A stretch of 64,000 nucleotides of DNA from Candidatus Eiseniibacteriota bacterium (GCA_963823555.1 CAWGMA010000001.1:1088001-1152000); one strand, 5' to 3'. Counted from the first letter of the stretch, positions 1-36,815 are shown. Made by a program: numbers and translations. The notes: generated by a model not told the origin, from the letters alone.

Positions 1-2293
1 GCCACGAGCCGCATCCTCGGCATTCCGCATCAGCCGTCGACGCCGCTGTATGTCCTCATCGGCCGGCTCGCCACGCTCGTCCCGGCGGGCACCATCGCCT
101 TCCGCGTCAACATGCTGTCGGCGCTCTCGACAGCGGCCACCGCGGTCTTTGCCTATCTTGCCGTGCTGCATCTCGTGGGACGCATGGGTCACGCTCGAGG
201 CCCGGCCATCGTGGGCGGGCTCGTGGCCGGCATCCTCACCGCCTTCTCCCGCACGATCTGGTTCAATGCTCTAGAGGCCGAGGTCTACGCGCTCTCGGGG
301 ATGATGGTGGCGATCTCGATCTGGGCCATTCTCTCCTGGGCCGATGGCCGAGAGGAGCGGCGCGACACACGGGTGCTGCTGGTCATCTTCTACCTCTTGA
401 GTCTCTCCATCGGCATTCACCTCGGAACCTATCTCGTACTGCCGGGCTTGGTCGTTCTCGTCATCCTTGAGCGGCCGGCGGGCCTTCTCACCTCGCGGGA
501 CCTCCTCGTGTGGCTCGTGGCCTTCCCCGTGGTGGGGCTCGTCCTCGTGGCCTTCGCCCGCAAGCTCGGGCTCGACGCCGGCGGCGATGCGTTTGCGCTC
601 CTGGCCGCGGCGCTCCTCTGCCTCGCGGCGGTCGAGGATCGGAGGTTCGCGGGCGCCCTCATCGCCCTCTTCCTCTTGGGCGTGAGCGTGCACCTCTTTC
701 TCCCCATTCGCTCCCGTCTCGGACCCATCATCAACGAGGGGCAACCGGACAACTGGCAGGCGTTCTGGGACACGCTGACCCGCGCCCAGTATCCGGCTCC
801 CGATGTGATGGTGCGACGCGCCCCGCTCGACTTCCAGTTCGATCACATGTTCCTGCGCTACGTGCGGGAGCAGTGGCCCGTGATCCCGCGTGTCCTCGGC
901 GGTCTCCTGTTTCCCCTCCTTGCTCTCGGCGGCGCCGTGGCCGAGGCGCGCCGGGACCGGCACGGCTTCTGGATGATGCTCGTCCTGGCCGTGGTCGCCG
1001 GACCCTTGATGGTGCTCTACCTCAACTTCACTGCCAACGAGGTCCGCGAGCGCGACTACTTCTTCACGCTCTTCTATCAGTTGACGGCGCTCTGGGCCGG
1101 GCTCGGAGCGGCGACAGTGGCGGCGATCGCGGCCGGGGGGGCGCGGCGAGCGATCTCGGGTCCGGTTCGTCTGGTGGTGGCCGGCGCGCTCCTTGTTCTT
1201 CTCGCCCTGGTTCCCCTTTCCCGCATGTGGTTCGAGCACGACCGCAGTCACGACTGGATCGCTCGCGATTACGCCTATAACCTGCTCGTGCCCTTGCCCC
1301 GAGATGCGGTCCTCCTCACCAACGGCGACAACGACACGTTCCCCCTGTGGTACCTCCAGGAGGTGGAGGACATCCGCAAGGATGTGCGCGTGGTGAACCT
1401 GAGCCTCCTCAACACGCCCTGGTACTTGAAGCAGATCCGCGACTACGAGCCGCAGGTGCCGCTGGGGCTCTCCGACGCGCAGATCGCCGCCCTCAGACCG
1501 ATCTATGACGAAGCCTCGAGGCGCGTCATCTACGTCAAGGACCTCGCCGTCCAGGCCATCCTGGCCGCCACGCCGCCCGAGCGACCGGTGTACCTGGCCG
1601 TCACCGTTCCCGATCTGATGGGTCTCGATGAACGTCTCACCATGGAGGGGCTGGCGCGCCGCATCCATCCCGGACCCACCGCCGTCCGCGTGGATGTCGA
1701 GACCTGCCGGCGCAATCTGGACGAGGTGTTCACGCCGCTCCGCGGCATCCTGACCCCGTCCGGCGAGACCGATACCTCGCTCTTCCGCGACGAGAACGAG
1801 ACCCGCCTCTTGCAGAACTACGCCGCGATCTCGTTCTACCTGGCGGTCGAGTACGACCGGCAGGGGAACCTCGAGGACGCGCTGGCGCAGTCCGAGCGGG
1901 CGCTCCAGATCAGCCCCGGCTTCTCCGGGAACCGCCTCTTCCTCGGCATTCTCATCGAGAAGACGGGGGATGTGGCGCGCGCGGAGGCGCACTACCGCGA
2001 GGCCCTGCGCTTCTATCCGGACGATGCGCGCTTCACCAACCGGCTCGGGCTCGTGCTGGCCGCCGGGGGCAAGATCGCCGAGGCCGTGCCGATGTTAAGG
2101 AGGGCGATGGTCCTGGGCGGGCCGGGGTACTTCGATCCCTACGCCGGTCTGTTCGAGATCTACTACCAGGTGGGGCACGTGGATTCGGCGGTGGCGGTTC
2201 TCGATGCCTGGCTGGATGGCCACCCCGAACGATGCCGAGGTGCGGGAGGTCCGCGACCGGGCGGCCCGCGGCGAAATGCCGCCGGGGATGTGA
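1..2293 (+). CDS. DUF2723 / TMEM260-like GT-C membrane glycosyltransferase with C-terminal TPRs (5' truncated; apparent +1 frameshift near 2223-2226)
   Basis: Frame 1 from base 1 reads ATSRILGIPHQPSTPLYVLIG (DUF2723 GIPHPPGxPLY-like). It also has EAEVY, INEGQPDNW, EVRERDYFF and TNGDNDTFPLWYLQEVE..R.DVRVVNLSLLNTPWY, many TM segments and TPR-like helices. Removing one C from the C4 run gives HPNDAEVREVRDRAARGEMPPGM* with TGA at 2291-2293, just ahead of the next gene's RBS. Confidence 0.88.
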
Positions 2294-2311
2294 GCCGAGG
2301 GGGAGGACTTG

Positions 2312-3292
2312 ATGGCAGAACGTGCTCTGGTCACGGGAGTGGCCGGGTTCATCGGTTCGCATCTCGCCGAGGCGCTGCTCGCCCGGGGCGATGAGGTCGT
2401 GGGCGTCGACTGCTTCACCGACTACTACGATCCGCGGCTCAAGGAACAGAACCTGGCAGCGATCCGCGATCATCCTCGCTTCCATCTGGTGCGTGCCGAT
2501 CTCAACGAGGTCGACCTCGAGGCGACCGCTGCCGACGTCGAAGTCGTCTACCATCAGGCCGCTCAGGCCGGTGTCCGCGCCAGCTGGGGGAGCGAGTTCA
2601 CGACCTATACCCGCCAGAACGTGGATGCCACGCAGCGTCTGCTCGAGTTCTTCCGGCCGCGGTCGCTCAGGCGCTTTGTCTACGCCTCCTCGTCGTCGGT
2701 GTACGGCGAGACGACCGAGCTGCCGATGCGCGAGGACGCGCCGACGCGTCCCTATTCTCCCTACGGCGTGACCAAGCTCGCGGGCGAGCATCTGGTTCGT
2801 CTCTACCACCGCAACTTCGGGTTGCCTGCCGTGGCGCTGCGCTACTTCACGGTCTACGGCCCGCGCCAGCGGCCCGACATGGCATTTCACCGTTTCATCA
2901 ACGCGCTGCTCGTTCGGAATCCCATCCAGGTCTACGGGGATGGGATGCAGACCCGCGACTTCACCTACATCTCGGATGCGGTGGCGGCCAACCTCGCCGC
3001 CGCCGAGCGCGGGGCTCCCGGCGGGGTCTACAACATCGGCGGTGGATCACGGGTGACGGTGCGGGAGTGCCTCGATCTCGTGCTCGGTCTCGTCGGCCAG
3101 GGAGAGGTGCGCTACGTCCCGCGGCAGCACGGAGACGTGACGCATACCTATGCCGACACCGGGAGGGCGCGGGAGGAGCTGGGATTCAGGCCCGAGGTCT
3201 CCCTGGCTGCCGGGCTCGAGCGCCAGGTCGAGTGGCAGCGGGGGCTCATGGGTGGGGTGCGGGCGGGAGCCGGGCCGGGCGAGGCAGGGTAG
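2312..3292 (+). CDS. NAD-dependent sugar-nucleotide epimerase/dehydratase (UDP-glucuronate 4-epimerase-like)
   Basis: TGVAGFIGSH, AAQAGVR, ASSSSVYG, SPYGVTK (YxxxK), LRYFTVYGPRQRPDMAF; GGAGG RBS upstream. Confidence 0.9.
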   Translation: MAERALVTGVAGFIGSHLAEALLARGDEVVGVDCFTDYYDPRLKEQNLAAIRDHPRFHLVRADLNEVDLEATAADVEVVYHQAAQAGVRASWGSEFTTYTRQNVDATQRLLEFFRPRSLRRFVYASSSSVYGETTELPMREDAPTRPYSPYGVTKLAGEHLVRLYHRNFGLPAVALRYFTVYGPRQRPDMAFHRFINALLVRNPIQVYGDGMQTRDFTYISDAVAANLAAAERGAPGGVYNIGGGSRVTVRECLDLVLGLVGQGEVRYVPRQHGDVTHTYADTGRAREELGFRPEVSLAAGLERQVEWQRGLMGGVRAGAGPGEAG

Positions 3293-3375
3293 GGTCGCCT
3301 TGGAACTCGCGAACGCGCCCGGGGTGCCCTGGGGAGCCTCGAGGCCGATCTCCGCCCAGGGAGCACCCTTTGGGT

Positions 3376-3381
3376 TATGCT
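3376..3381 (+). promoter_or_regulatory. Candidate -10 box (TATGCT) 7 nt before ATG 3389; possible leaderless internal promoter
   Basis: TATGCT-acgggcg-ATG; no obvious RBS and no clear -35. Confidence 0.35.
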
Positions 3382-3388
3382 ACGGGCG

Positions 3389-4369
3389 ATGACGATCGAC
3401 TTGAGGGAAAAGGAGATCCCGCGGCGAGAGCCCGCCGCGGCCGAGCCGCGCGGCGTGAGCGTCGTGGTTCCCGTCTACAACGAGGCCGATTCTGTGCAGC
3501 CGCTGGCCTCGAGGATGGCCACGGTCCTCGCCGAGCTGGGGGTTCCCTACGAGATCCTGTTCATCGACGATGGCTCGACGGACGGGACCTTCGCCGAGAT
3601 CATCAGCGCTCGCGCCACGAACCCCGCCATCCGCGCCATCCGCTTCCGCCGCAATTTCGGCAAGTCCGCCGCCCTGGCCGCCGCCTTTCGCGAGGTGCGC
3701 GGCGATCTGATCGTGACCATCGATGGCGACCTGCAGGACGAGCCGGCCGAGATCCCGGAGCTCCTGCGCAAGCTCGATGAGGGCTACGACCTCGTCTCCG
3801 GCTGGAAACAGAAGCGCCGGGATCCCCTGTCGAAGCGCCTGCCATCCAAGCTCTACAATCTCGTAACTCGCCGCATTTCAGGGCTTTCCATCCACGATTT
3901 CAACTGTGGTCTCAAGGCCTACCGGCGCCACGTGGTGGAGGCCATCGAGATCTACGGCGAGCTGCATCGTTACATCCCCGCGCTCGCCCACTGGGCCGGC
4001 TTCCGGGTGACGGAGGTGCCTGTTCTCCACCATCCGCGCCAGCACGGGAGGAGCAAGTTCGGGAGCTCGCGCTACCTGAACGGGCTCCTCGATCTCCTGG
4101 GCGTCATGTTCCTGAACTCGAGCGAGCGCAGTCCGCTCCATCTCTTCGGCCGGCTCGGGATCTTCACCGGCCTCGCTGGATTCCTGATCTGCCTCGTCTT
4201 CCTCATCGAGTGGATCGGTGGCAGCCCGCTCCGGGTGCGGCCGCTCATGCTGTTCGGCGTCGCCCTGATCCTCCTCGGCGTGCAGTTCGTGAGCATGGGC
4301 TTTCTCGGCGAGCTCATAGCCAAGGAGCGCGGCGCCCGTCCATATCCCATCCGAGAACGACTGGGTTAG
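3389..4369 (+). CDS. GT2 polyprenyl-phosphate glycosyltransferase (ArnC/GtrB-like)
   Basis: VVVPVYNE, IDDGSTDGT, RNFGKSAAL, TIDGDLQDEP, DFNCGLKAY, GELHRYIP; two C-terminal TM helices. Confidence 0.88.
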   Translation: MTIDLREKEIPRREPAAAEPRGVSVVVPVYNEADSVQPLASRMATVLAELGVPYEILFIDDGSTDGTFAEIISARATNPAIRAIRFRRNFGKSAALAAAFREVRGDLIVTIDGDLQDEPAEIPELLRKLDEGYDLVSGWKQKRRDPLSKRLPSKLYNLVTRRISGLSIHDFNCGLKAYRRHVVEAIEIYGELHRYIPALAHWAGFRVTEVPVLHHPRQHGRSKFGSSRYLNGLLDLLGVMFLNSSERSPLHLFGRLGIFTGLAGFLICLVFLIEWIGGSPLRVRPLMLFGVALILLGVQFVSMGFLGELIAKERGARPYPIRERLG

Positions 4370-4375
4370 GGGACG

Positions 4376-5278
4376 ATGGATGCCCCCCGAGTGCTGGTCA
4401 TCGTCGTCCACTGGAACGGATTCGCGGTGAGCGAGCGCTGTGTGGCCTCGCTCCAGGCGCTGACCTACCCGGCCGTCGATCTCCTCGTGATCGACAACGC
4501 GTCGATCGATGGATCAGGGGAGGCGCTGGCGGCGCGCTTTCCCGACGTCGAGATCCTGCGCCTGACCGAGAACCGCCTCTATGCCGGCGGGGCCAATCGC
4601 GGGCTCGAGCGCGCCCTGGCCGCGGGTTACGCTCACGCCGTGGTCCTCAACAATGACACCGAAGCCGAGCCCGACCTGATCGAGCGTCTGGTCGAGGTGG
4701 CGGAGTCCGATCGCCGCATCGCCTTCGTCGGCCCCAAGATCCTCTACCTGGACCGGCCCGATCTCATCTGGTCGGCCGGGGGGAGGATCGACTACTGGCG
4801 CGGGCTCTTCCAGCATCACGGGCTCAGGCAGCCGGATGGCCCCCGTTTCGATGCCGTGCGCGACGTCGATTATCTGACCGGCTGCTGCATCCTGGCCACG
4901 CGCCGCGCCCTCGTCGAGGTCGGCACCCTCGACGAGAGCTATGTCATGTACTCCGAGGATGCGGACTGGTGCCGGCGTGCCCAGCGGCTCGGATTCCGTG
5001 TCGTGTATGCGCCGCGCGCGCGGCTCAAGCACGCCGTCTCCGCGGCCTCGGGCGGTGGGCTCACGCCCTACAAGATGTACCACCGCGTCCACTCGAACCT
5101 CCTGTTCTTCTGGCGTCACGCCCGCCCCTGGCACTGGCTCACCATTCCCATTCTGCTGCCGCTCGCCTTCCTCGGCTTCGCCGGCCGCGAGGTTGCGCGC
5201 GGCAACTTCGCGGTCTTGAAGGCGGCGTTCCGGGCCCTCGGCGAGGTCTTTCGCCGATCCCCGCGCCGGACCACCTGA
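4376..5278 (+). CDS. GT2 glycosyltransferase (WbbL/rhamnosyltransferase-like)
   Basis: VIVVHWNG, IDNASIDGS, LNNDT, DYLTGCCIL, MYSEDADWCRRA. Confidence 0.85.
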   Translation: MDAPRVLVIVVHWNGFAVSERCVASLQALTYPAVDLLVIDNASIDGSGEALAARFPDVEILRLTENRLYAGGANRGLERALAAGYAHAVVLNNDTEAEPDLIERLVEVAESDRRIAFVGPKILYLDRPDLIWSAGGRIDYWRGLFQHHGLRQPDGPRFDAVRDVDYLTGCCILATRRALVEVGTLDESYVMYSEDADWCRRAQRLGFRVVYAPRARLKHAVSAASGGGLTPYKMYHRVHSNLLFFWRHARPWHWLTIPILLPLAFLGFAGREVARGNFAVLKAAFRALGEVFRRSPRRTT

Positions 5279-5297
5279 GGCGTGGAGGAAGCCCGAG

Positions 5298-6341
5298 GTG
5301 CGCGTGCTCCACATCGCGGCCGAGATCGCCGGACAACCGGCCTTGCTTTGCCGCGGGCTGCGCGCGCTCGGCGTCGATGCCCGGTCGCTGTCGTTGCATC
5401 CGTCCTGGCTCGGATATGAGAGCGACATCGCGATCGACGGCCGAGGCGGGGCCGGCTTCTTCCGCCGCGTGGCCGCCCTCGCCCGGCACGGCCGGGGTCT
5501 CGACATCGTGCACATCCACTTCGGCACGACCTTTCTGCCGCGGCTCCTGGATGTGCCTCTCCTCGCCCTGGCCGGGGCCCGACTCGTCTTCCACTTTCAT
5601 GGTTGTGAAGTGCGGCCCCGGGCGGCGATGCTCGAGCGCCATGCGCTTTCCGCGTGCAGCGAATGCCCGGTGTACTGCGTGCCCGAGAAGCAGGCACGGC
5701 TCCTCGAGATCGCCCGCCGCCACGGAGCGCTCTTGATCGTCTCGACGCCCGATCTCCTCGAGGCCGTTCCCGAAGCCGAGCATCTCCCGGTCGCGATCGA
5801 TCTGGAGGATTGGATCGAGCTCGGCAAGCGCGTCGCGGCGGCCCCGGGCTTCGTGGTCCTGCATGCGCCGAGCGACCCTGCCATCAAGGGCACGCCGCAC
5901 GTCGAAGCCGCGCTCCGGGAGGTGGCCGCCGCGCATCCCGACGTCCGGCTCGAGCTGGTCGAGGGAGAACCGGCGGCGAAGGCGCGGCTGCGCTATGCCC
6001 CGGCCACGGTCGCCGTGGACCAGCTGCATCTCGGCTGGTACGGGCTCTTCGCCGTCGAGGCGATGGCCCTCGAGAAGCCGGTGCTGGTCTACATCCGGCC
6101 CGACCTCGATCGGCCCGAGCTCCCGGTCGTGCGCACGACCCGCGAACGTCTGGCCGCGGATCTCGCCCTGCTCCATGGCGATCGCCGGCGGGTCGACGAG
6201 CTCGGCGCGGCCGGCCGCTCCTACGTGGCCCGAGTGCACGATCTCAAGGCCGTGAGCCGTCGGCTCCTCGACCTCTATCGGGGTCGCGTCATGCGCTCCT
6301 CCGGGGTCGAGGCCGTCCGCAGCGCCGCTGGAGGTGCCTGA
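5298..6341 (+). CDS. GT-B fold glycosyltransferase (GT4-like)
   Basis: MRVLHI start, HFHGCEVR, HAPSDPAIKGT, VDQLHLGWYGLFAVEAMALEKPV. Confidence 0.8.
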   Translation: MRVLHIAAEIAGQPALLCRGLRALGVDARSLSLHPSWLGYESDIAIDGRGGAGFFRRVAALARHGRGLDIVHIHFGTTFLPRLLDVPLLALAGARLVFHFHGCEVRPRAAMLERHALSACSECPVYCVPEKQARLLEIARRHGALLIVSTPDLLEAVPEAEHLPVAIDLEDWIELGKRVAAAPGFVVLHAPSDPAIKGTPHVEAALREVAAAHPDVRLELVEGEPAAKARLRYAPATVAVDQLHLGWYGLFAVEAMALEKPVLVYIRPDLDRPELPVVRTTRERLAADLALLHGDRRRVDELGAAGRSYVARVHDLKAVSRRLLDLYRGRVMRSSGVEAVRSAAGGA

Positions 6342-7921
6342 TGGGAGTGGGGACCGACCTCCCGGCGCCGGGTCCGGGCGGGCCCGAGGGCGACAGCACG
6401 CCATCGGTGGCGCGGCGGGTGAAGGGCCTCACCAAGGACTCGATGGTCTACGGCCTCGGCATGGCCGGCCAGAAGCTGATCGGTCTCATCCTGCTCCCCA
6501 TCCTGACGCGGATCTTCGAGCCGGCCGAGTACGGCGCCAGCGAGCTCATCGGTCTCCTGCAACTCCTCATCACGTACTTCGTGGTCTTCGGCAACGATGC
6601 CGCTCTCCTGCGCTACATCTTCGACACGGATTCCGAGATGGATCGGCGGCGAATCGCCGCTCTCGGCCTCTCGTTCCGCGCGATCATGGCCGTCCTGTTC
6701 ACGCTCCTGCTCTTGCCCATGGCCGGCAACTTCTCCCAGCTCATCTTTCGCAACCTCGACTACAGCTCGCTCATCGTTCTCACACTCCTGGATCTACCCT
6801 TCACGACGACGGTCAAGTTCTGTATCGATCTGTTGCGGGTGCGCCTGCGCCCCGGCCAGTTCGTCGCCTACTCGCTCGGCAACCTGGCCGCCATCGCCAT
6901 TCTCACCCTGGTCTTCACGCCGGATGTGCTCCATGTCGAGCTGCCGCTCGTGGGTGCGGAGGTCGTGCTGCACGGGCAGGGGATGGGGCTCACCGGACTG
7001 TTCCTGGCCCGACTCGTTGCCGACGTGATCTTCACGGTCATCGGCCTGATCTGGACCTGGAAGGACCTGAGCCTTCCCAAGTCCCTTGGCGTGCTCGGCG
7101 ACATGCTGCGCTACGGGTTGCCTCTGGTGCCGGTCGGCCTCGCGCAGTTCGTGCTCGCCTACGCCGATCGTTATGTGCTCAACCGCTACGTGTCGCTCGA
7201 TCAGGTGGGGCCCTACTCGGTCGGGGCCAAGGTCGCCTCGTTCATGATGCTGTTCGTCGCGGCATTCCAGTACGCCTGGGGACCGTTTGCCATCTCCATC
7301 TTCCGCGAGGCCAACGCACGCCAGACCTATGCCAAGGTCTTCTCGCTCTACGCTTTCGTTGCCGGCGCGATCGGGCTCGTGCTGACCTGTCTGGCGCGCG
7401 AGTTCCTGGCCTTCATCACTACGGGCCACTACGTGCACGGTTATCGTATGGCGGGCTTCCTCGTCTTCGCCGCCATGGCCAACGGCGCCTTTTTCATTCC
7501 GGCGACCGGGTTGCAGATCGCCAAGCGCACGGGCGTGATGGGCGGGATCGCGGTGTTCGCCGCCATTCTCAACGTGGCGCTCAGCCTCCTCCTGGTGCGC
7601 CCCCTCGACGTCTACGGGGTGGCCACCGCCAGCCTGGTCGCGCAGACCGTGGCCACCGTCGTGCTGTTCGCCGTCGCCCAGCGTATCTATCCGGTGCCCT
7701 TCCATCCCGGGCGGGTGGCCCTCACGTTCTTCATGGCCATCAGCCTGGCGGCGGCGGGCATCTACTTCGGGCGAACCGGGGCGGGTGCTGCGCTCATCTC
7801 CACCCTGGTTGCTCTCGGCCTGTACGTGGTCGGGACCCTGGGGCTCAAGGTCATCGACATGCAAGATTTGACGATCTTGCGCAACTACCTGCAGAAGAAG
7901 ACCGCCACCTGGAGAGGCTAG
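6341..7921 (+). CDS. Wzx-type oligosaccharide flippase
   Basis: TGATG coupling; KDSMVYGLG..ILLPILTRIFEPAEYG, LRYGLPLVP, YADRYVL, VGPYSVGAKVA, FQYAWGPF; many TM helices. Confidence 0.85.
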   Translation: MGVGTDLPAPGPGGPEGDSTPSVARRVKGLTKDSMVYGLGMAGQKLIGLILLPILTRIFEPAEYGASELIGLLQLLITYFVVFGNDAALLRYIFDTDSEMDRRRIAALGLSFRAIMAVLFTLLLLPMAGNFSQLIFRNLDYSSLIVLTLLDLPFTTTVKFCIDLLRVRLRPGQFVAYSLGNLAAIAILTLVFTPDVLHVELPLVGAEVVLHGQGMGLTGLFLARLVADVIFTVIGLIWTWKDLSLPKSLGVLGDMLRYGLPLVPVGLAQFVLAYADRYVLNRYVSLDQVGPYSVGAKVASFMMLFVAAFQYAWGPFAISIFREANARQTYAKVFSLYAFVAGAIGLVLTCLAREFLAFITTGHYVHGYRMAGFLVFAAMANGAFFIPATGLQIAKRTGVMGGIAVFAAILNVALSLLLVRPLDVYGVATASLVAQTVATVVLFAVAQRIYPVPFHPGRVALTFFMAISLAAAGIYFGRTGAGAALISTLVALGLYVVGTLGLKVIDMQDLTILRNYLQKKTATWRG

Positions 7922-7927
7922 GAGCGA

Positions 7928-14409: not shown

Positions 14410-14428
14410 GCGCGCGCGAGGGCCGGCC

Positions 14429-19910: not shown

Positions 19911-19934
19911 AGAGGGAGGAGCGAGAGTTCTGTC

Positions 19935-22427: not shown

Positions 22428-22432
22428 CGATC

Positions 22433-24967: not shown

Positions 24968-24990
24968 AGTGCGTCCAGAGGGATCCCATC

Positions 24991-26115: not shown

Positions 26116-27053
26116 ACCCCCAGTCGCCGGGAAGGCGCCGGCTCGCGCTCTATGCACGCATCGTGTTGAGCGCGGTCGCGCTCTTCCTCGTTCTGCGCGT
26201 GATCAGCGGGCGCGAGGTCCTGGCCGCGCTGGCCGGGGCGCGCCCGGTCTGGCTGGTCCTGGCCGGCCTCATCGTGGTGCTCGACCGCATCCTGATGGGA
26301 TGGAAGTGGGGCATCCTGCTCGCCGCCCAGGGTGTGGTGCGTCCACTCGGCGAGCTCGTGCGCGCCTACTTCATCTCGACCTTCTACGGGACCTTCCTTC
26401 CCACCGGGATCGGTGGCGACGTGATCCGCGTGGTCCAGGTCTCGCATGGCCGCGCCGCGGCGATGGCGGTGACCGCCTCGGTCGTGATGGAGCGGGCGCT
26501 GGGTCTCGTTGCCCTCACCGTGCTCGTCGTGCTCACGGCGGCGACCTACATCGTCGTGGCCCACGCCCATCTGATCCCGCTGCTCACCATGGCCGTCGCC
26601 CTGACGGTCGTGGGCGTGGGCGGCCTGGCCTATGCGCTCCATGGCCCCTTGCTCAAGGGTCTGCCCGGTCGCCTGGAGCGCTTCGTGACCGCTTTCCGCG
26701 TCTATGCCGGGCAGCGGGGAGCATTGACCCGCTTCTTCTGGTGGTCCTTCGTCGAGCAGCTGGTGCCCGTGGTGGCGGTCTACTGCCAGGCCAGAGCCCT
26801 GAGCATCGACTTGAGCTTCTGGGTCTTCCTGGTGGTCGTGCCGCTCGACATGTTCATCACGCGGATCCCGATCTCGGTGGATGCGATCGGGATCCGCGAG
26901 GGCCTCTACGTCGCGCTCTTCGGCCAGGCCGGACTGGGGCCGAGCGAGGCTTTCCTGCTCGCCCTGGTCGGGCGCGCCGTGACCTTGCTTGGCCTCCTGC
27001 CCGGAGCCTTCCTCCGGGCCCGATCCGGTGGTGAGGACCTGGCCTCAGCGTAG
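26112..27053 (+). CDS. Lysylphosphatidylglycerol-synthase TM domain protein (UPF0104/AglD-like putative flippase)
   Basis: FLPTGIGGDVIR, SVVMERALG, IPISVDAIGIRE; about 8 TM helices. Confidence 0.8.
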   Translation: MNPQSPGRRRLALYARIVLSAVALFLVLRVISGREVLAALAGARPVWLVLAGLIVVLDRILMGWKWGILLAAQGVVRPLGELVRAYFISTFYGTFLPTGIGGDVIRVVQVSHGRAAAMAVTASVVMERALGLVALTVLVVLTAATYIVVAHAHLIPLLTMAVALTVVGVGGLAYALHGPLLKGLPGRLERFVTAFRVYAGQRGALTRFFWWSFVEQLVPVVAVYCQARALSIDLSFWVFLVVVPLDMFITRIPISVDAIGIREGLYVALFGQAGLGPSEAFLLALVGRAVTLLGLLPGAFLRARSGGEDLASA

Positions 27054-30000: not shown

Positions 30001-31376
30001 GTCGCCGGGTCGGTGCCTTCCATGCGGCAGGCGATGCCGGCCTGGTCGATGCCGGTGGCATCGGCACCGTCCCCCCATGTGATCTCGACCGAAGCCACAT
30101 CCTGCTGGTAGGTGAAGATGGCGGTGGCGAATCCGGCGGCGGTGTTCTCCAGCTCGGCGCCGTTGACCACGAAATCAGGACCGCGCCAGTCCGGACCGGG
30201 AGCGGGCATGTTCCGCGAGAACGAATCGGCGTACGAGTTGGGATCGACGATGGTGCTTCCGGAGGCGACGTTGGACATCGCCGACAGGTTGCCTGCGTCA
30301 TCCATCAGCTTCAGCGCGAAGTTGTAGCTGGTGGACGGCGCGAGACCGGAGAGGCGGGTTCCGGTGAGGGCGAGCCCGGGACCGATTCGCTCGTAGTCCC
30401 CACCCTGGTTCTGGGCTCGGAAGTTGGCGGCCGAGATACTACCGGTCGCATAGCGGGCGTCGGCATAGGCGGGGTTCCCCGACAGGCCGTCATCCCCGGT
30501 GTTGGTCCAGATGAGGAGCACCCTGTCGCCGCTCACCGTGCCCACCGCCAGGTCGTCGACGGCATCCGGTGGGGTCGCGTCGTTGACCGCCTCGCGCACG
30601 GCCGTGAGGTAGACATCGGCCATCTCGCTGTAGCCGCGGTCATTGGGATGGAGATTGTCGTACATCCAGTCGTTGGGACCGCCGGAGAAGAGGTCGGGGT
30701 TGGTCAGGAAATGCTGGTAATGGTCGGCCAGGGTGACGCGTTCGGGCGTGCCGGTGGCAGCCCCGTTGCGGTAGTCGAGCACCATGCGCACGACCTCGCG
30801 GTTGAAGGTCTGCGTGTCCTCGGCCCGTCCGCCCAGGGGAATGACGCGGCTCACCACCACGCGACCGACCCCCTCGGACAGGGCATATTCGATGAGAGCC
30901 CCCAGATCGCCACTGGCCGTCGTGGTCGGAGTCGAGTGGTTGGTCGACCACGGCGCGTAGGGTCCGGGGGTGGAGTTCAGGTCATTGGTGCCGAGGTGGA
31001 TGGCGATGACCTCGGGGGTGTGACCGGCAATCACCGGCCCCAGATCATAGGTGCCGCCGGAGAGGAAGTTCTCGATGCGGGATCCTCCGTTGAAGAACCC
31101 GCGGTAGGGATCGGTGCCCGAGGGGCCGACGAAGTCATAGGTGCCGACCGCGTTCAGGTACTGATGGAGCAGAGGTCGGAAGCCGCGGTCGTCCGTCGAC
31201 CGCACGCCATGGGTGATCGAGTCGCCGGTCGGCATGAAGCGTACGGCCGTTGCCGCTGGGGCCAGGGCGGCAAGGAGGAGGATTGCGAGGCCGGTGCCCT
31301 GCGTGATCGCGGCCGGGCGGAGGCGCGAGGCATCCGGATTCGGAAGCAGGGCGAAGAGACTCTGGATCCAGCGCAC
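27045..31376 (-). CDS. Large secreted protein: SGNH hydrolase + FN3 + 3x(beta-sandwich + FN3-like) + PVEL domain + T9SS-like/FlgD-Ig CTD
   Basis: AAAGGAG RBS then GTG at 31376; signal peptide; GDSIT, LGTND, DNLHPN; DATPPDAVDDL..WTNTGDDG; three DxF..GPxW modules; SPVELSSLSA..WATSYE; VAPNPAT..FDASGRRV..WDGRTAGGERASSGVYFARL. Confidence 0.85.
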   Translation of the reverse strand: MRWIQSLFALLPNPDASRLRPAAITQGTGLAILLLAALAPAATAVRFMPTGDSITHGVRSTDDRGFRPLLHQYLNAVGTYDFVGPSGTDPYRGFFNGGSRIENFLSGGTYDLGPVIAGHTPEVIAIHLGTNDLNSTPGPYAPWSTNHSTPTTTASGDLGALIEYALSEGVGRVVVSRVIPLGGRAEDTQTFNREVVRMVLDYRNGAATGTPERVTLADHYQHFLTNPDLFSGGPNDWMYDNLHPNDRGYSEMADVYLTAVREAVNDATPPDAVDDLAVGTVSGDRVLLIWTNTGDDGLSGNPAYADARYATGSISAANFRAQNQGGDYERIGPGLALTGTRLSGLAPSTSYNFALKLMDDAGNLSAMSNVASGSTIVDPNSYADSFSRNMPAPGPDWRGPDFVVNGAELENTAAGFATAIFTYQQDVASVEITWGDGADATGIDQAGIACRMEGTDPATADGYIVYRNTEPTDQTVVLREVVNGQPGALIATSPGAAAGPQAGDRFKVVLTTDATGHHFSAFINGQPDAVVTDPQKRRGNGTYWCGVIGDGQLNNNVANWQVETNPVNLPPSPFDLLAPANGITLANLNPYFDWQNSLDPNGDPITYTLYYSTDPGFSPSTTTTVADLTESFFAQGEPILPNRTFYWKVRAEDPQGAFTYSTTTRSFSTGNIQQLGDDFERTAIGPNWTVTPGAYALSNGELDGLEPGYSNIATYRLAENPVSIEWQWSETADPVALGQAGGLIGLDANTATANGYFVFRNSIGAQRWGVFAVVNGVLSGSLGIDQPGRGPLPGPGDVIRVVFTKTASAHIFDCYVNGVFDARMTDSQRRYGLAPATYSGLLLGENAANNVESFAAMGANLNLPPEPFALLEPADGSLIYSLSPLLRWEAANDPNPGDQLSYTVIYDTDPGFASPDSLPPTTSTETTYSGNLVSGEPIYWRVVVTDGAGATAPSIQTWSFQFAPILTFIDDFNRAELGPNWSGDTNVIKIVSNELKNTANGSTFDIAVYAARSNPDAVEFTWSPSANLDGIRRGGLALRLNNTTGNPSGYFVYIDPVTNRSQLAQINNGNATSPLADAAGQTDPPGPGKRFKVALSSDAAGHHFDISVDGVFHSRLSDPNRRQGNGTVLYAGVALRGGYANSLDDFTMTAFNFGPPPTSFALLVPAHQDTGVAVAPTFRWRAAGEPGLRYTVYVGTDSSFATADSVAALTDTTAAWPTPLALATDYVWRVRATDGPNSSFNENGWHRFRTTTFSPVELSSLSARTEPGAIVIEWATSYERDHLGFHVWRAEDAAGSLVRLTAADALVTGRSPYTFTDRAVTPSQSYRYWIEAVGLDGSSERYGPVMASAPGLVLALHPVAPNPATPPASIRFDLPAPATVELLIFDASGRRVSEVLRGPLAAGSHIATWDGRTAGGERASSGVYFARLVVGDFQTSRKLLLLR
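27620..30227 (-). repeat. Three tandem ~293-aa intragenic modules (879-nt period)
   Basis: DSFSR (30227), DDFER (29348) and DDFNR (28469) are each 879 nt apart. Shared motifs: GPxW, PxxGxxFKV, GHHF, DPxRRxGxGT, PPxxFxLLxPA, WxVxAxD. Confidence 0.8.
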
Positions 31377-31720
31377 GGGTGGTGTCACTCCTTTCGCCTT
31401 GACGATCCCATGACCGGGGCGAAAACCGCACCGGAACCGAAAAGCATGCGTCAACCCGCAGCCTGTGTGTTCCGGGAGCAGGCAGGAGCCGATTCCTGCG
31501 GGAGTGTTTGATTCCCCGCGCCGGAGCCCCGAGCTCCTGCTGGGTTCGGCGCGGGATCTTAGCCGGTTCGGGCGGGGGAGGCCAGTGGGCTTTTTGCGGG
31601 GGGCGGTGAAAATCCGAGCGCCCCCGCCGTCCCCCGTCATGTTCCCTAGGTGGTTTGCCTGTCTGTAGTTGTCCGATCCTGGGTGGTCACCTGGGGGATG
31701 GGGCAGGGCAGGCGGGCATT

Positions 31721-32545
31721 CTAGATCTGGAGCAGTTCTCGCACGGGGGCGAATGGGAATTGCCTGAGGAGGCGCTCGAGCTTGGGCTCCACAGTGCCCA
31801 GACCATGGTAGTGCAGCACTCGCTCCTTGAGCGGCAGGTCGAGGCGTGGCTTCTCGCGGTCGAACTCCGGAGGATGGACGTAGATGACCGCCGGTTGTCC
31901 CTGGCGGTTGAGCCGCTCGATCCCCCAGGCCAGAAAGGAGGCGGGAAACAGCCGCATGTAGAATCCGCCGCCGATCGGGATCCGGCGGCCGCCGACGGCG
32001 ATGGTCGCGGGCGGCACCTCATAGAAGCGGCGCCCTCCCTCCTCGCGGAGCAGGTGGGGGCCGGGTGGGGTGCCGGGGATCCCATAGAGGTAGGTCTTCA
32101 CCGGATAGATGCTCGAGTCATAGGTGAACCCCTCGGCGAAGAGAATGTCCAGCGCCCATCGCGAACGCTCGGTGATGGTCCAGTAGGCGGCGCGAAACCC
32201 CATCACCGACTCGCCGGTCACCGTCTCGAGAATGGAACGCGAGCGCCGGAGATCGGCGCGGAACTCCTCCGGGGTCTGGTCATAGACCAGACGGTGGTCC
32301 CAGCCATGGCTCGCGATCTCGTGCCCACCGCGCTGGACCGCACGCACCAGGTCCGGGTGGCGCTCAGCCACCGCGCCGAGGACGAAGAAGGTGGCTCGCG
32401 CCTGGTAGCGGTCGAGGAGGGCGAGCAGCCGGTGGGTGGGGGCGACAAGGCGATCTTCGAGACCGTCCCGCTCGGCCGGCGAGAGGGAGTAGACGGAGTG
32501 GTACCAGTCCTCGAGATCGACGGTGAGGGCGTTCGTCGTGGTCAT
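31721..32545 (-). CDS. Polysaccharide deacetylase (PEP-CTERM/XrtA-locus type, DUF3473 tail)
   Basis: ALTVDLEDWYH, ATFFVLG, GHEIASHGWDH, GFRA, YDSSIYP, IGGGFYMRLFP, YVHPPEFD. Confidence 0.88.
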   Translation of the reverse strand: MTTTNALTVDLEDWYHSVYSLSPAERDGLEDRLVAPTHRLLALLDRYQARATFFVLGAVAERHPDLVRAVQRGGHEIASHGWDHRLVYDQTPEEFRADLRRSRSILETVTGESVMGFRAAYWTITERSRWALDILFAEGFTYDSSIYPVKTYLYGIPGTPPGPHLLREEGGRRFYEVPPATIAVGGRRIPIGGGFYMRLFPASFLAWGIERLNRQGQPAVIYVHPPEFDREKPRLDLPLKERVLHYHGLGTVEPKLERLLRQFPFAPVRELLQI

Positions 32546-32563
32546 GAACCGGGATCCCCGCCT

Positions 32564-33325
32564 TCAGGCCGCGGCCTGGCGTCTCCCGGCCCGGGAGGCT
32601 CTGGCCGCGCGGCTCTGCCGGCGCCAGCCGCGCGACAGCTGGGAGAGGCGGAGCACCTGCTTGAGGGCCCGCGGCACCCGCCGGTAGATGTTGACGGGGG
32701 CCGGGCGGATCTCGTGCACGGCGATCGGGATCTCGACGATCCTGAGTCCCAGGTACTGGGCGCGGACGATGAGCTCGGTGACGAAGACGTCGCGATCGGT
32801 CTCGCAGATCTCGACGATGTCAGCGACCGCCTGGCGGCGGAGCGCCTTGAGGCCATGCGTATCCGTACCACGGAAGCCGACCAGGATCCTGAGGAGAACG
32901 TTGAAGACCTGGGTTGCGAGGCGGCGGGCGAAGGGCCGGGTGTCACGGGCGCCCCGAGCCCGCTTCGAACCGATCACGATGTCCGCGCTATCGAGCTCCG
33001 ACAGGGCGAGGCGGATGAAGGTCACATCCCAGAAATCGATCTCGAAGCAGACAAGCACATCCCCCCGCGCCACCCGCATCCCGGTCCGCAGGGCGCCCCC
33101 GTAGTTCGGTTCGTGGTAGTTGAGGATCCGGACACGCGGAACCTCCTGTGCCAGCCTGGTGCCGATGGCCGACGTCTCGTCCTTGCTGCCATTCTCGCAG
33201 ACGATGATCTCGTAGTCGTAGCCCACCGAGTCGAGTTCGCGGACCAGGGCCCGCAACGACTGCTCGAGGATCCCTTCCTCGTTGTACACCGGGATCAGGA
33301 TCGATAGCTGTGGCGGAGCGTTCAT
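32564..33325 (-). CDS. GT2, polyprenyl-phosphate glycosyltransferase-like
   Basis: LSILIPVYNEE, CENGSKDET, NYGGALRTG, EID in place of DxD, IVIGSKR, TDTHGLKA; TGATG coupling. Confidence 0.8.
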   Translation of the reverse strand: MNAPPQLSILIPVYNEEGILEQSLRALVRELDSVGYDYEIIVCENGSKDETSAIGTRLAQEVPRVRILNYHEPNYGGALRTGMRVARGDVLVCFEIDFWDVTFIRLALSELDSADIVIGSKRARGARDTRPFARRLATQVFNVLLRILVGFRGTDTHGLKALRRQAVADIVEICETDRDVFVTELIVRAQYLGLRIVEIPIAVHEIRPAPVNIYRRVPRALKQVLRLSQLSRGWRRQSRAARASRAGRRQAAA

Positions 33326-34662
33326 CACTCGACCTCGGCGCTGATGATGCGACCGGCCGCATCCTGACCGCTGTGGATCGCGTCTTCCATTGAACTGTAT
33401 TCCCATGCCCCGTACCGGCCAACACTGAAAATACCGCGGCTCTGCAGGTATCGCTGGACCGCATCCACCGCCCTTCTGCGGGCGTGGTCGTACAGGACGT
33501 AGGCGCAGGGGATCTCGAACACGGCTTCGACGCCGATGCGGTCGCCGCGCCTCAAGATCCCGATCCGCTCGAGATCCGACTTCACCTGCTTGACCACTGC
33601 GGCCTGGTCGATGGGGTGCTCTCCGGAGAATGCCACCTCAGCGGTGACCGAACTGGCGCCGGGAGGCGCGACGTGGGGCGAGGAGTTCGAGGGGAAACCA
33701 AGCCGGTAGAAGCTCCACTCCGGTTCGGGGAAGTAGACCCAGTTGTAAGGTGAAAGCTCGCGCCCCTCGATCCCGAGGTGCACTGAAAGGACTGAATTGT
33801 GCCGCAGTCGCGTCCCCGCGGCGCGGACTGCATCCGGGACCGGGCGCAAGATACTGACCAGCCGGTCGAGGGGCATGGTGCTGATGAGCGATTCGTACTC
33901 GAGGACCGATTCACGGTCGCGGAGTCGCAGCCGGCGCTTGTCAGGGTCGATGGCGATGACTTCCTCACCCAGTCGCAGCGCGCCGGCGCCGGCCGCAATC
34001 GCGCTCGGAAGCACCTGGATTCCACCCTGGATGGGGTACAGAAAGTGCGCGTTGTAGCCGAAGGGGCGGTCGCGCTTGTCGACGAGGGCGCCATCGATGA
34101 CCTCCTCGAGGCTCGGGCGCGGGACGAACCGGCCCATCCACTCGGTCGTCATGTCGCGTGGCGGGATGGTCCACAGCTTGGTGTTGTACGGGATCATGAA
34201 GTGCTTGGCAATGCCGGCGCCGAGGGTCGAGAGGATCCACTCCTCGAAGTTCTGATCAAGACTCTCGACGCTCGTCTGGCTGCCCGTCCCATCGGCTCGA
34301 GAGGCCATCGTCGCCTCGACAAAGCCGAGCACGCACTCCTTGACGACCTCGGCCGGCAGGCCATGGGTGTTGGCCTGAAATGGGTAGGGCGTGTAGATCC
34401 CGTGCGAGTAGATCCAGGCCTTGCGCGTGACCTGGTGGATGTTGTCACCGCAGAGCGACAGGATCCACTCCCGGATCTCGGGATGGCGGAAGTGCAGGAA
34501 GTGGCCTGTGTAGTCGAAGGTGTAGCCGTCGATGATCTCCGAGCGGCAGAGCCCGCCGGGGCGGTGCTCCCGCTCGAGGACAGTGACGTCATCGCGCCCC
34601 GCGCGCCGCAGGTCGTGCGCTGCGGTGAGGCCGGCCAGTCCCGCTCCGAGGATGACGATCAT
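33325..34662 (-). CDS. FAD-dependent oxidoreductase, UDP-galactopyranose mutase-like
   Basis: ILGAGLAGL, PGGLCRS..GYTFDYTGHFLH, FMIPYNTKLW, FLYPIQGG, WVYFPE..FYR, GRYGAWEY. Confidence 0.72.
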   Translation of the reverse strand: MIVILGAGLAGLTAAHDLRRAGRDDVTVLEREHRPGGLCRSEIIDGYTFDYTGHFLHFRHPEIREWILSLCGDNIHQVTRKAWIYSHGIYTPYPFQANTHGLPAEVVKECVLGFVEATMASRADGTGSQTSVESLDQNFEEWILSTLGAGIAKHFMIPYNTKLWTIPPRDMTTEWMGRFVPRPSLEEVIDGALVDKRDRPFGYNAHFLYPIQGGIQVLPSAIAAGAGALRLGEEVIAIDPDKRRLRLRDRESVLEYESLISTMPLDRLVSILRPVPDAVRAAGTRLRHNSVLSVHLGIEGRELSPYNWVYFPEPEWSFYRLGFPSNSSPHVAPPGASSVTAEVAFSGEHPIDQAAVVKQVKSDLERIGILRRGDRIGVEAVFEIPCAYVLYDHARRRAVDAVQRYLQSRGIFSVGRYGAWEYSSMEDAIHSGQDAAGRIISAEVE

Positions 34663-34667
34663 GTCGT

Positions 34668-36815
34668 TTACTCGGACCCGGAGCCGCCTTCTCCTGTCGC
34701 GGCGCTTTCGGGTGTCGCCGACGGCTGAGCGGCCGGGAGCGGATTGATGCGATAGAGGGACCAGATGCGATCACGCCCCGTGGTGAAGACGAGTGTCGTT
34801 TGCTCGGCGATGAACTTCTTGCGACGGGCGTTCTCCTCGACGGCCCAGCGGCTCTGGTACACCACATCGGGCCAGCCCGTGCCCATCTTCTCGAGATCCC
34901 ACTCGGGACAGATGACCAGGTATTCCGGGCGGGACTCCCGCTGGGTGACCGGATAGCGCGAGCGGTCCTTGATGTCGCGGTCCCTGTCGATCGAGAGCCA
35001 CCACGGCTTGCTCCAGCTCCACCCGGCGATGATGGCGTCGGGCTCGGTGTTCGTATCCACGAAGGCGACGAACTCGCGATAGGGAGCCCCGATCTCGATC
35101 TCACCACGGTGGATTTCGTCGATCTGGGCGAGGAGCGGGACCGCTGTCTTGCCGATCACGACCAGGGCCAGGGCGCCGAGCAGGCAGCCGCGGAGCGCCG
35201 CCATGCCCGCTGCCGGGCGCCAGCGTTCCGCCGCCTTCCAGCCGTCGACCACGAGCTTCGCCGTGAAGATCTGCAGGAAGGGCATGATGTAGAGGATGTG
35301 TTGCAGGGGCAGATCATAGCTGAAGAGGATCCACCACACGAACCACATCACCGTGAAGACCATGAGATAGAGGGGCACCGGATCGAGCCGCCGCCGCAAG
35401 AGGACGATCGCGTAGGCGATGCCGGGCAGGGTGAGAAACACCCCGAGGATCGACCAGAAGTCCATCTGGGCGAGGGTGACGAAGGGGCGGGCGATGGCGA
35501 AGAGCGACTCCACCTGTCCCTCACCGGTGGAGAAGCCGACGGCGCGCCGCATGTGCTGGTTCCACAGGCGGGAGAGGTGGGCCGTTTCGCCCTGCAGGCC
35601 GAACTGGCTCACCCGCATGATGAAGAACGCGACGGTCGACGTCAGGAGTCCGAGCAGCGGCAAGAGGTATACGCGGCTCGGGAGGCGGCGGCGAGCGAGG
35701 GCCAGGATGCCATAGGTGCCGATCGCCGCCAGGATCGAGAACAGGAAGAGCCACTTGGACTGGAACGAGAGCCCGAAGAAGATCCCGGCGATGTAGAGCT
35801 TCCAGTTGCTCGGGCGTGTAATCGCGGCGCCGAAGAAGATGAGACCCATCATGAGATAGGCGAGTGCCGGGGCCTCGCCCATCCCACCTTCCACGTATCC
35901 GCAGGCGGGTCCGTAGAAGATGTTGGCCGGGTGCAATGTGAAGAAGAGGAGGCCGAGGAGCACGGCCCCACCGCCGTAATGGCGGCGCAGCGCGCCGTAG
36001 CTCAAGAGGAGAAAGAAGACGAAGAAGGCGATCGCGACCGCGTTCGCCACCGCAAAGCGAATGCCGAACACAGCGAAAGCGATGGCGGTGGGAACCAGCA
36101 TCGCCGGTCCGGTCGTGATACGAAACGTGTCCTGGTCGAAGCCCTCGATGCTGCGCAGCGCGTACTTGCCGTAGAGGACCAGGTTCTTCGGCGGCTGCAC
36201 GTTGATGCCTTCGGCATGGAAGAGGGGTTGCACCGATCGGGCCCAGAGGGCCATGCCGATCACGAAGGCGATGAGCAGGATCAGGAAGATCGGTTCGCGG
36301 GCCCGGGAGGGGATGGCGTGGGGGAGGGCACACAGGACGACCCAGATGGCTCCCGCCACGACGCGGGCAAAGCGCCAGACGAGGGCGACCGCGGCGATGA
36401 TGACCGTTTCGAGGCCGCGGTACAGCACGATCGCCCAGTCGGCGGCGATGGCGAGTCCGAGGGCGATGAGGCCAGCGGCGAGGGAGATCGGGCGGAGCGC
36501 GGCCACCTGGCCTGCGGTTCTGGCGCTCAGTTCGCCGTCGGGGCTCAGGTTCGCCGCGACGAAGCGCACGATCGCATCGGCGCTGGCCAGGGCCCCGATG
36601 GCGACGAGCCCAGCGCCCACCACGGCGAGGCCGAGGCGTACGAGGTTGACTGGTAGTCGGGCATCCCAGGCTGAAGCGTCGGCAACAGGAGGAATCGTGC
36701 CATGTCGCACGCCGTCCCTGCTACGTGCCGTTTCCTGAGCCGCCGCGGACCCCGGCCCCCCAGTGGGCTCGTTTCGCGAAGGACTCAATGGACTCCTCGC
36801 GCCGGCATGCTGCAT
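34668..36815 (-). CDS. GT-C (ArnT/PMT-like) multi-pass membrane glycosyltransferase; start uncertain
   Basis: About 13 TM helices; HAEGINVQPPKNLVLYGKY..ITTGP, MGEAPA, GLSFQSK; periplasmic C-terminal domain. Confidence 0.65.
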   Translation of the reverse strand: MQHAGARSPLSPSRNEPTGGPGSAAAQETARSRDGVRHGTIPPVADASAWDARLPVNLVRLGLAVVGAGLVAIGALASADAIVRFVAANLSPDGELSARTAGQVAALRPISLAAGLIALGLAIAADWAIVLYRGLETVIIAAVALVWRFARVVAGAIWVVLCALPHAIPSRAREPIFLILLIAFVIGMALWARSVQPLFHAEGINVQPPKNLVLYGKYALRSIEGFDQDTFRITTGPAMLVPTAIAFAVFGIRFAVANAVAIAFFVFFLLLSYGALRRHYGGGAVLLGLLFFTLHPANIFYGPACGYVEGGMGEAPALAYLMMGLIFFGAAITRPSNWKLYIAGIFFGLSFQSKWLFLFSILAAIGTYGILALARRRLPSRVYLLPLLGLLTSTVAFFIMRVSQFGLQGETAHLSRLWNQHMRRAVGFSTGEGQVESLFAIARPFVTLAQMDFWSILGVFLTLPGIAYAIVLLRRRLDPVPLYLMVFTVMWFVWWILFSYDLPLQHILYIMPFLQIFTAKLVVDGWKAAERWRPAAGMAALRGCLLGALALVVIGKTAVPLLAQIDEIHRGEIEIGAPYREFVAFVDTNTEPDAIIAGWSWSKPWWLSIDRDRDIKDRSRYPVTQRESRPEYLVICPEWDLEKMGTGWPDVVYQSRWAVEENARRKKFIAEQTTLVFTTGRDRIWSLYRINPLPAAQPSATPESAATGEGGSGSE

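Follow-up and report, generated by a model that had tools for sequence, protein, structure and literature searches.

A glycan gene cluster that surrounds a gene for a PorZ-like protein, PorZ being one part of the T9SS (type IX secretion system), was analyzed in a genome of candidatus Eisenbacteria (G000; 4.6 Mb, 67% GC, 4 contigs, 92.5% completeness). The phylum was assigned from a homologue with the name Candidatus Eiseniibacteriota that shares 62% identity with the same-order GNAT, and from a GNAT tree in which Eisenbacteria-titled sequences fall together with genomes of the same class. The cluster lies in what we refer to as the window, the whole 64,000-nucleotide stretch of DNA under study (C1:1088001-1152000 of G000), and feature positions are counted from window base 1. 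Gene calls divide the cluster into two convergent blocks, a plus-strand run that extends from before base 1 to 27053 and a minus-strand block at 27045-36623. The plus-strand run is tightly packed, with gaps of less than 60 bases in 15 of 18 cases, and it stands directly behind lipid A, 3-deoxy-D-manno-octulosonate (Kdo), msbA and glycosyltransferase family 9 (GT9) genes: the order 5' of the window is bamA, skp, lpxD, lpxC/fabZ and lpxA (read from the sequences), followed by lpxB, waaA, lpxK, msbA and GT9 (identified with Pfam). The glycan region is followed on its 3' side by rpsA, mraZ and the division and cell wall (dcw) cluster.

The conserved core of the run comprises a Dpm1-like synthase, a GT2/WbaP-like fusion, the PorZ-like protein, a Fem-like GNAT and GT4 glycosyltransferases. 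Conservation was scored in 42 neighborhoods, consisting of approximately 20 kb around the PorZ-like gene in 35 genomes (60 kb for the same-genus genome G001 and for G003) and seven titled loci; upstream counts are lower bounds, given the shortness of many contigs and the 8 kb that separate AsnB from the PorZ-like gene, and the downstream span is complete in the 24 of 42 neighborhoods that reach mraZ. The PorZ-like protein (16243..18522, +) has a signal peptide, two predicted seven-bladed beta-propellers and a C-terminal domain (CTD), in agreement with a preliminary description of this DNA, which had reported a propeller with a FlgD-Ig/CTD tail. Upstream of it are the Dpm1-like polyprenyl-phosphate sugar synthase (13696..14409, +; PF00535; 41/42 neighborhoods) and the fusion protein, a GT2 that continues into a WbaP-like membrane and Rossmann region (14429..16072, +; 36/42). 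Wherever the fusion gene is present, it is always immediately upstream of the PorZ-like gene. Its product has no phosphoglycosyl-transferase domain in G000 or in G001, and this domain is degenerate in relatives: a weak PF02397 match was obtained for 8 of 20 family members scanned, and the DE motif usual for that domain was unrecognizable in 14 aligned members. Intact initiating transferases with a DE motif occur at four other places in G000.

Downstream of the PorZ-like gene lie the Fem-like GNAT, a candidate aminoacyl transferase (21442..22420, +), a GT4 glycosyltransferase (22433..23507, +; PF00534; 24/42), a GT4-like glycosyltransferase with a YFFPP-type N terminus (23504..24967, +; PF13439; 25/42) and another GT4 (24991..26115, +; PF00534, E 5e-36). 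In the assembly, frameshifts interrupt the GNAT at 22145 and the GT4 that follows it at 22514; because short-read contigs (one for each position; depth 2, run X4) lack one base at these sites and both genes are intact in relatives, the two breaks are probably assembly errors. The GNAT is probably broken again near its 3' end, and the short-read contigs leave 22224-22417 uncovered. Fusion of the GNAT to the GT4 was considered and rejected, since a stop codon separates both genes in G001. Two other genes, murE (45779-47364) and clpC (G000:C1:1067565-1070056), are also in pieces, most likely through further assembly indels.

The PorZ-like gene was found in 120 genomes of a phylum sample of 121, as a single match in 115 of those. 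In a profile search, the GNAT was on the same strand and no more than 6 kb downstream of the PorZ-like gene in at least 85 of 120 genomes, with a spacing of less than 200 bp in at least 71; these counts leave out 19 weak matches, and at least four of the misses are contig ends. A single-fragment GNAT query was less sensitive (17/42 neighborhoods). Retention of the propeller gene in the glycan locus of relatives, which the preliminary description had marked for checking, is borne out at the same locus across the phylum. The locus GNAT is present in at least 10 of 17 families; among the matches listed, none came from families f3, f4, f6, f7, f13, f15 and f16. PF13480 was matched by 16/16 rows of the GNAT family and FemAB by 13/16, the family's PDB matches include aminoacyl-tRNA-dependent enzymes and FemX, and the locus GNAT scored 78-91 bits on TIGR03019 (cut-off, 260). 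Among 80 loci around Dpm1-like genes, many of them on short contigs, there were six strong PorZ-like matches, titled Eisenbacteria or candidate UBP1, and partial or weak matches in one Krumholzibacteriia, three Ignavibacteria and one Calditrichota locus.

A TMEM260/DUF2723-like GT-C membrane protein with tetratricopeptide repeats (1..2394, +; PF11028, E 1e-25; 12/42) starts upstream of the window, and the 3' end of its gene is possibly frameshifted. It is followed by an NDP-sugar epimerase/dehydratase (2339..3292, +; PF01370, E 2e-60), an ArnC-like GT2 that is a probable polyprenyl-phosphate sugar synthase (3389..4369, +; NF007986, 215 bits, below the cut-off of 529), a GT2 (4376..5278, +; PF13641, PF00535) and a probable GT-B glycosyltransferase, so judged from its sequence, with no Pfam or NCBIfam match (5298..6341, +; 3/42). 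A Wzx-type flippase (6341..7921, +; PF01943, 41.5 bits) is present in 7/42 neighborhoods, each time with the AsnB-type amidotransferase that follows it here (7928..9964, +; TIGR01536, 426 bits, above cut-off; TIGR03108, 350 bits, below the cut-off of 817; 7/42). The amidotransferase is accessory, with WbpS-like chemistry possible. A second, divergent AsnB-like gene (39132-40766, -) lies just upstream of mraZ and is also found in G001 and G003. A TuaH-like GT4 (9979..11169, +; NF047676, E 1e-20; 23/42) and a YfhO-like GT-C transferase (11156..13699, +; PF09586; 27/42) lead up to the core. Between the PorZ-like gene and the GNAT are a GT-C-type membrane protein (18519..19910, +; PMT_2, E 0.002; this genus only, 1/42) and a PglF/CapD-like UDP-HexNAc 4,6-dehydratase without the membrane part (19935..21389, +; PF02719, E 1e-103; 13/42), and the run ends with a flippase-like membrane protein (LPG_synthase_TM; 26112..27053, +; PF03706, E 4e-36; 2/42). 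The gene at 18519-19910 had been described as Wzy-like; this identity was rejected on the basis of the weak PMT_2 match, Atlas neighbors that are PMT_2/GT22 GT-C proteins (score, 0.98-0.99) and zero Wzy matches.

The minus-strand block begins with a CTD-tailed surface protein (27045..31376, -) that carries an SGNH/GDSL hydrolase and Ig-like repeats (PF00657, PF13860; this genus only, 1/42) and scored 25 bits on TIGR04183, above the cut-off of 23, which makes it a type A CTD cargo. Next to it is an XrtA-type CE4 polysaccharide deacetylase (31721..32545, -; TIGR03006, 289 bits against a cut-off of 276; this genus only). A genus-limited block (1/42) completes the strand, with a GT2 (32564..33325, -; PF00535), an FAD-dependent oxidoreductase of the PRK07208 type (33325..34662, -; PF01593; NF005547 below cut-off) and a GT-C-like membrane protein (34668..36623, -; PMT_2, E 0.006).

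The preliminary description had listed a large CTD protein, a FemAB-like GNAT, a deacetylase, AsnB, Wzx and many glycosyltransferases, all of which are indeed present, and had combined anchor pathway, shuttle and cargo into one cassette. In its fullest form this would be a dedicated Wbp/Vim-type cassette, with the anchor produced by AsnB, the GNAT, the deacetylase, Wzx and Wzy, and with the neighboring large CTD protein as the cargo. Although all these gene types stand within 37 kb in both G000 and G001, we regard such a cassette as highly improbable, and the conservation counts largely refute it. The deacetylase, the cargo gene and the GT-C "Wzy" each occur in 1/42 neighborhoods, in every case that of G001 (three deacetylase queries matched only this genome among the 42, and a distant CE4 could escape them); AsnB occurs in 7/42, the "Wzy" matches GT-C families, and deacetylase and cargo are encoded on the opposite strand. 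WbpB/D/E-like genes are elsewhere in the genome, unlinked to the locus, and are patchy across relatives. With 231 CTD genes among 3463 genes genome-wide, 1.8 are expected by chance within 36.8 kb; two were seen, one of which is the PorZ-like gene itself. The cargo gene was rejected as a part of the system given this chance-level frequency and its presence in 1/42 neighborhoods. The cargo gene and the deacetylase of the window are passengers.

The enzyme trio of deacetylase, FemAB and AsnB, which had been treated as diagnostic, fared similarly. A second locus in G000, an exopolysaccharide (EPS) locus of the XrtA type (C1:1337818-1372213), contains Wzx, chain-length genes, a UDP-HexNAc dehydrogenase and its own deacetylase, FemAB and AsnB-like genes; its deacetylase scored 345 bits on TIGR03006 and its FemAB protein 261 bits on TIGR03019. 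There were 118 TIGR03006 matches in 94 genomes, of which 34 lay within 6 kb of an exosortase; the only one with a PorZ-like gene less than 20 kb away was that of the window itself. The separate EPS trio and this ratio of 1/118 led us to reject the trio as an anchoring marker. Compared with XrtA/PEP-CTERM EPS loci, the window deacetylase passes TIGR03006 as it does there; however, the locus GNAT falls far below TIGR03019, and the full trio is in the separate EPS locus. No exosortase was found in G000, the preliminary description having noted none in the stretch of DNA, yet 89 of the 121 phylum genomes have one, and the absence in G000 is therefore local. Among the matches listed, an exosortase within 20 kb of the PorZ-like gene was seen in 0/87.

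The homologues of SprA, PorU and PorV that the preliminary description had proposed to look for are present in G000. SprA scored 451 bits on TIGR04189 (cut-off, 200), and PF14349 detected SprA in 115/121 phylum genomes. PorU scored 475.5 bits on NF033707 (cut-off, 420) and matched PorU 6ZA2 with an E value of 4e-36; it was above cut-off in 94/121 genomes, every one of the 121 gave a match at E 1e-10, and the His-Gly and Cys of the catalytic His/Cys dyad were kept in 11/11 aligned sequences. Directly after porU is a PorV-family gene (NF033709, 191 bits against a cut-off of 90; the narrower NF033710 gave 111 and did not reach its cut-off of 250), and this order was found in 10/10 relatives fetched. 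G000 has several PorV-family paralogues. According to a local profile, CTD proteins make up 231 of the 3463 genes predicted in G000, and there were 150 scored FlgD_ig matches among 257 candidates. The proposed sorting system for CTD proteins is thus partly supported, by the presence of SprA, PorU, PorV, a PorZ-like protein and CTDs, and unsupported as a dedicated clustered cassette.

Several observations on these genes stand apart from the glycan locus. A conserved run of dnaE, accA, porU and porV, which continues with a pair of DUF5683-like genes, one NHL-repeat gene and a gene for a 1106-aa probable beta-barrel (G000:C1:696067-713186), is found in most of 10 relatives; the genes after porU-porV are candidate extra parts of the system. 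The sprA gene (G000:C1:1890241-1899522) is divergent from lptF/lptG in 9/10 relatives, which ties the translocon to lipopolysaccharide (LPS) transport genes. Six tandem C25 (gingipain-family) peptidase genes, encoding proteins of approximately 1600 aa with CTD tails, lie at G000:C1:490795-519084, with 21 PF01364 matches genome-wide. A TonB-dependent receptor, a CTD-tailed protein and a PorV-family barrel share one cassette, without SusD, at G000:C1:971701-977712.

The PorZ-like protein of G000 scored 64 bits on NF052228, for which the cut-off is 260; all 28 rows of its class matched this model, none of them close to the cut-off, and PF21544 had no match anywhere in the G000 genome. Searched alone, the G000 sequence did not find PorZ 5M11; the 28-row class profile matched it in one stretch (profile 7-708 to chain 13-758; E 2e-52). 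Prediction from a single sequence gave a poor model, with a predicted local distance difference test (pLDDT) score of 36; the model with a pLDDT of 87 consists of beta structure throughout, its C-terminal domain stands apart, and alignment with seven-bladed propellers gave a Z score of approximately 31. Its Atlas neighbors are mostly PorZ-family clusters. On sequence grounds, the propeller protein is a distant PorZ homologue that stands outside the family by the curated cut-off. It can be envisioned that it does not function as a PorZ and is instead some other CTD cargo with a glycan-binding or scaffolding role, and that secreted proteins are released or stay attached to PorV-family barrels with no glycan anchor involved. 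The score below the PorZ cut-off, the near absence of PF21544 and the several PorV-family paralogues would suit this alternative; we nevertheless consider it improbable, given the end-to-end match to 5M11, the near-universal and mostly single-copy retention of the gene in step with PorU, and the intact active-site residues of PorU.

A search for PorK, PorL, PorM and PorN counterparts, also called for in the preliminary description, had a different outcome. In the 121 phylum genomes, GldM (PF12081) was above cut-off in none, with one sub-threshold match, and neither GldL (PF22827, a model without a positive control) nor GldN (PF19841) was found. Local profiles built from 12 Bacteroidota-side gldKLMN loci revealed no GldL, GldM or GldN in G000, with no significant match for GldL or GldM, although very divergent homologues could remain; a local GldK profile gave partial matches in G000 to three FGE-domain proteins only. 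As controls, the GldM model was positive in 14/61 genomes of a Bacteroidota-side phylum and the GldN model in genome G187. The GldL, GldM and GldN negatives mean that these proteins were not found in the genomes searched and are not proof of absence. In a first control, GldM was found in 0/5 genomes, titled Ignavibacteria, Kapabacteria, Fibrobacter, Gemmatimonadales and Bacteroidetes, which suggests that the lack of the motor extends beyond Eisenbacteria. Older surveys reportedly recorded incomplete T9SS gene sets outside Bacteroidia. It is possible, and we put it forward as a tentative proposal, that Eisenbacteria run a motor-less type IX-like system in which SprA, PorV, PorU and PorZ export and fasten approximately 200 proteins without GldL, GldM, GldK or GldN, and that a tRNA-dependent Fem-like transferase enables the operon to produce an LPS anchor that is aminoacylated. 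For the Bacteroidia machine, release of cargo from SprA is reported to require the GldLM motor (PMC10994853, PMC12635249).

Amino-sugar genes of the Wbp type are found at another place in the genome. Directly before lptE (G000:C1:1329518-1333057) is a C-3 acetamido-sugar trio of dehydrogenase, acetyltransferase and aminotransferase genes, with UDP-GlcNAc 3-dehydrogenase-like, WbpE/QdtB and QdtC/WlbB proteins as best matches. All three genes were together in 21 of 30 loci examined; the acetyltransferase was present in 36/61 relatives and was not found in 25/61, including all members of f8, f14 and f16 and nearly all of f9. The trio is absent from families with a strong PorZ-GNAT pair (f8, f9, f14) and present in those with a broken one (f3, f4, f6, f7, f13, f15); given this complementary pattern, a fixed Wbp/Vim pathway is not indicated.

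These distributions bear on an alternative that we rate as less likely, although it deserves serious consideration, namely, that the run is a general envelope-glycosylation cluster, engaged in LPS core decoration and in protein O-glycosylation, for which polyprenyl-phosphate sugars and GT-C enzymes (the TMEM260-like and YfhO-like proteins, for example) would be used. The PorZ homologue would then be active in T9SS-type anchoring but be located here through the clustering of envelope genes, and the anchor sugar would come from elsewhere, for example, from the C-3 trio by lptE. The best-kept neighbors of the PorZ-like gene are compatible with this alternative, as they are Dpm1-like (41/42), the GT2 fusion (36) and YfhO (27), none of which is Vim-like; so are the absence of the GNAT from the locus in 7 of 17 families among the matches listed, the WbpB/D/E-type chemistry of the trio before lptE, and the linker genes of Porphyromonas gingivalis, which are scattered by locus tags (PMC13086638). 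However, the PorZ-like gene and the GNAT are less than 200 bp apart in at least 71 of 120 genomes, and f8, f14, f16 and f9, the families in which the trio acetyltransferase was wholly or nearly wholly missing, keep both PorU and the PorZ-like gene. Nor did exported proteins show clear enrichment of D(S/T)(A/I/L/V/M/T), presumably the Bacteroidota O-glycosylation motif: relative to shuffled sequences, its frequency was 0.73 in CTD proteins (depleted) and 1.08 in other exported proteins, compared with 0.90 in a cytoplasmic proxy. Systems of three components, such as ArnC/ArnT and CsbB/YfhO, glycosylate on the periplasmic side. The Eisenbacteria locus resembles these and TMEM260-type GT-C systems in its two polyprenyl-phosphate sugar synthase-like GT2s and several GT-C proteins, and differs from them in that its genes are coupled to a PorZ-like gene.

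On balance, we lean toward the view that the plus-strand run is a phylum-conserved envelope-glycan operon with a PorZ homologue, which builds or decorates an LPS-linked anchor glycan for CTD-tailed secreted proteins. A number of results weigh against this interpretation. With respect to PorZ, zero PorZ-like members reached the NF052228 cut-off (best E value, 1e-42), PF21544 was matched by 1/28 rows, two sensor-kinase (two-component) propellers outscored 5M11 in total, though in four to five pieces, and two VIA fold searches returned generic seven-bladed propellers only, with 5M11 not in the top 50. With respect to the locus, neither a Wzy polymerase nor an intact initiating transferase was found there by family and motif scans, unlike what would be expected from the WbaP- and Wzy-dependent linker of P. 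gingivalis (PMC13086638). Envelope genes (bamA, lpx, msbA and mraZ/dcw) cluster at this place anyway, the relatives are not independent of one another, and the PorZ-like and GNAT profiles were made from locus members, which favors the counts. With respect to the GNAT, 35 of the 120 genomes lacked it at the locus among the matches listed, and in seven families this held for every member sampled; Fem-type GNATs are common in ordinary polysaccharide loci, and a second one is in the EPS locus of G000. Furthermore, f7, f13, f15 and f16 carry a distinct GNAT clade elsewhere, beside a DegT-type aminotransferase in 9/11 loci. This GNAT, whose clade comes from a quick tree with weak deep branches, could with its aminotransferase constitute a relocated aminoacyl-sugar module. 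Genes labeled from their sequences as SurA-like and panB/panC-like lie close to the same clade.

From the observed gene content and order, and from the presence of SprA, PorV and PorU, we infer a series of enzymatic steps for the envelope-glycan operon. Cytoplasmic GT2 and GT4 enzymes would extend a glycan whose simplest carrier is lipid A-core, given that the lipid A, Kdo, msbA and GT9 genes precede the run; on the periplasmic side, further sugars would come from Dpm1-like/GT-C pairs. The Fem-like GNAT would attach an amino acid, probably from aminoacyl-tRNA, to an amino sugar, thereby providing the free amine needed by the sortase. Cargo would cross via SprA on PorV; with the PorZ-like protein binding and presenting the glycan, PorU would remove the CTD and join the new C terminus to the amine of the aminoacylated sugar. 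PorZ, which the preliminary description had cast as a shuttle, is a subunit of the attachment complex; the shuttle is PorV.

This scheme can be compared with systems for which linking sugars have been reported. In P. gingivalis, PorZ binds anionic LPS (A-LPS) and PorU (PMC8545088), and an amide bond ties the cargo to an aminoacyl sugar, which is the product of WbpA/B/E/D, VimE and VimA and does not depend on WbpS (PMC7468200). The linker of Prevotella intermedia is an N-alanyl-deoxyhexose made without WbpB, WbpD, VimA and VimE (PMC11969387), so that a non-Wbp route has precedent, and anchoring in Cytophaga hutchinsonii requires WaaL (PMC12860637). The three published linking sugars all bear an amino acid, namely, Ser, Gly or Ala (PMC7468200, PMC11969387). 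What the known anchors share is the need for an amino acid on an LPS sugar, which a Fem-like GNAT beside a PorZ homologue and behind lipid A genes fits; it is unlikely that the anchor sugar is identical to that of Porphyromonas.

The likeness to the P. gingivalis attachment complex PorU-PorV-PorQ-PorZ (5M11, 6ZA2) lies in the PorU His/Cys dyad beside a PorV-family gene, SprA, type A-like CTDs and a protein with two propellers and a CTD. In contrast to the P. gingivalis T9SS, the PorZ homologue of G000 is below cut-off and its gene belongs to a glycan operon, the searches detected no GldL/PorL, GldM/PorM or GldN/PorN, approximately 231 CTD proteins are encoded, and the organism belongs to another phylum. 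The Wbp/Vim pathway is matched by the Fem-like GNAT with weak TIGR03019 similarity, as reported for VimA (which was compared by description only), by the GT4s, by an AsnB-type amidotransferase in some lineages and by the C-3 amino-sugar trio elsewhere in the genome; unlike that pathway, the Eisenbacteria locus has no conserved VimE-like deacetylase, no intact WbaP and no Wzy, and the Wbp-like genes are unlinked and patchy. The P. intermedia linker offers an aminoacyl-sugar anchor of non-Wbp origin, and in Eisenbacteria a 4,6-dehydratase adjoins the GNAT, a comparison that is one of chemistry and not of genes (PMC11969387).

In the literature surveyed, which was mostly non-subscription, we found no report of a PorZ-linked glycan operon, of a T9SS in Eisenbacteria or of a motor-less T9SS, and the parts of PMC11205867 and PMC8542988 that were available hold nothing on Eisenbacteria. 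It has been stated that a T9SS "may also be present" in six phyla (PMC11285876), and SprA is described as spread across phyla of the Fibrobacterota-Chlorobiota-Bacteroidota (FCB) group (PMC12611786); T9SS parts outside Bacteroidota are therefore already in print, and their wider distribution as such is not new.

In conclusion, the block of PorZ-like, GNAT and glycosyltransferase genes, which is phylum-wide, provides testable gene candidates for a non-Wbp route to an anchor sugar, the genes for T9SS anchor sugars being known, to our knowledge, only for Porphyromonas and Tannerella. With SprA, PorU, PorV and PorZ homologues in nearly every genome and GldL, GldM and GldN not found, the question of a minimal T9SS also becomes directly testable in this phylum. 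If the motor-less proposal is true, the translocon and the attachment complex would represent an older core, energized differently from the Bacteroidia machine or not at all.

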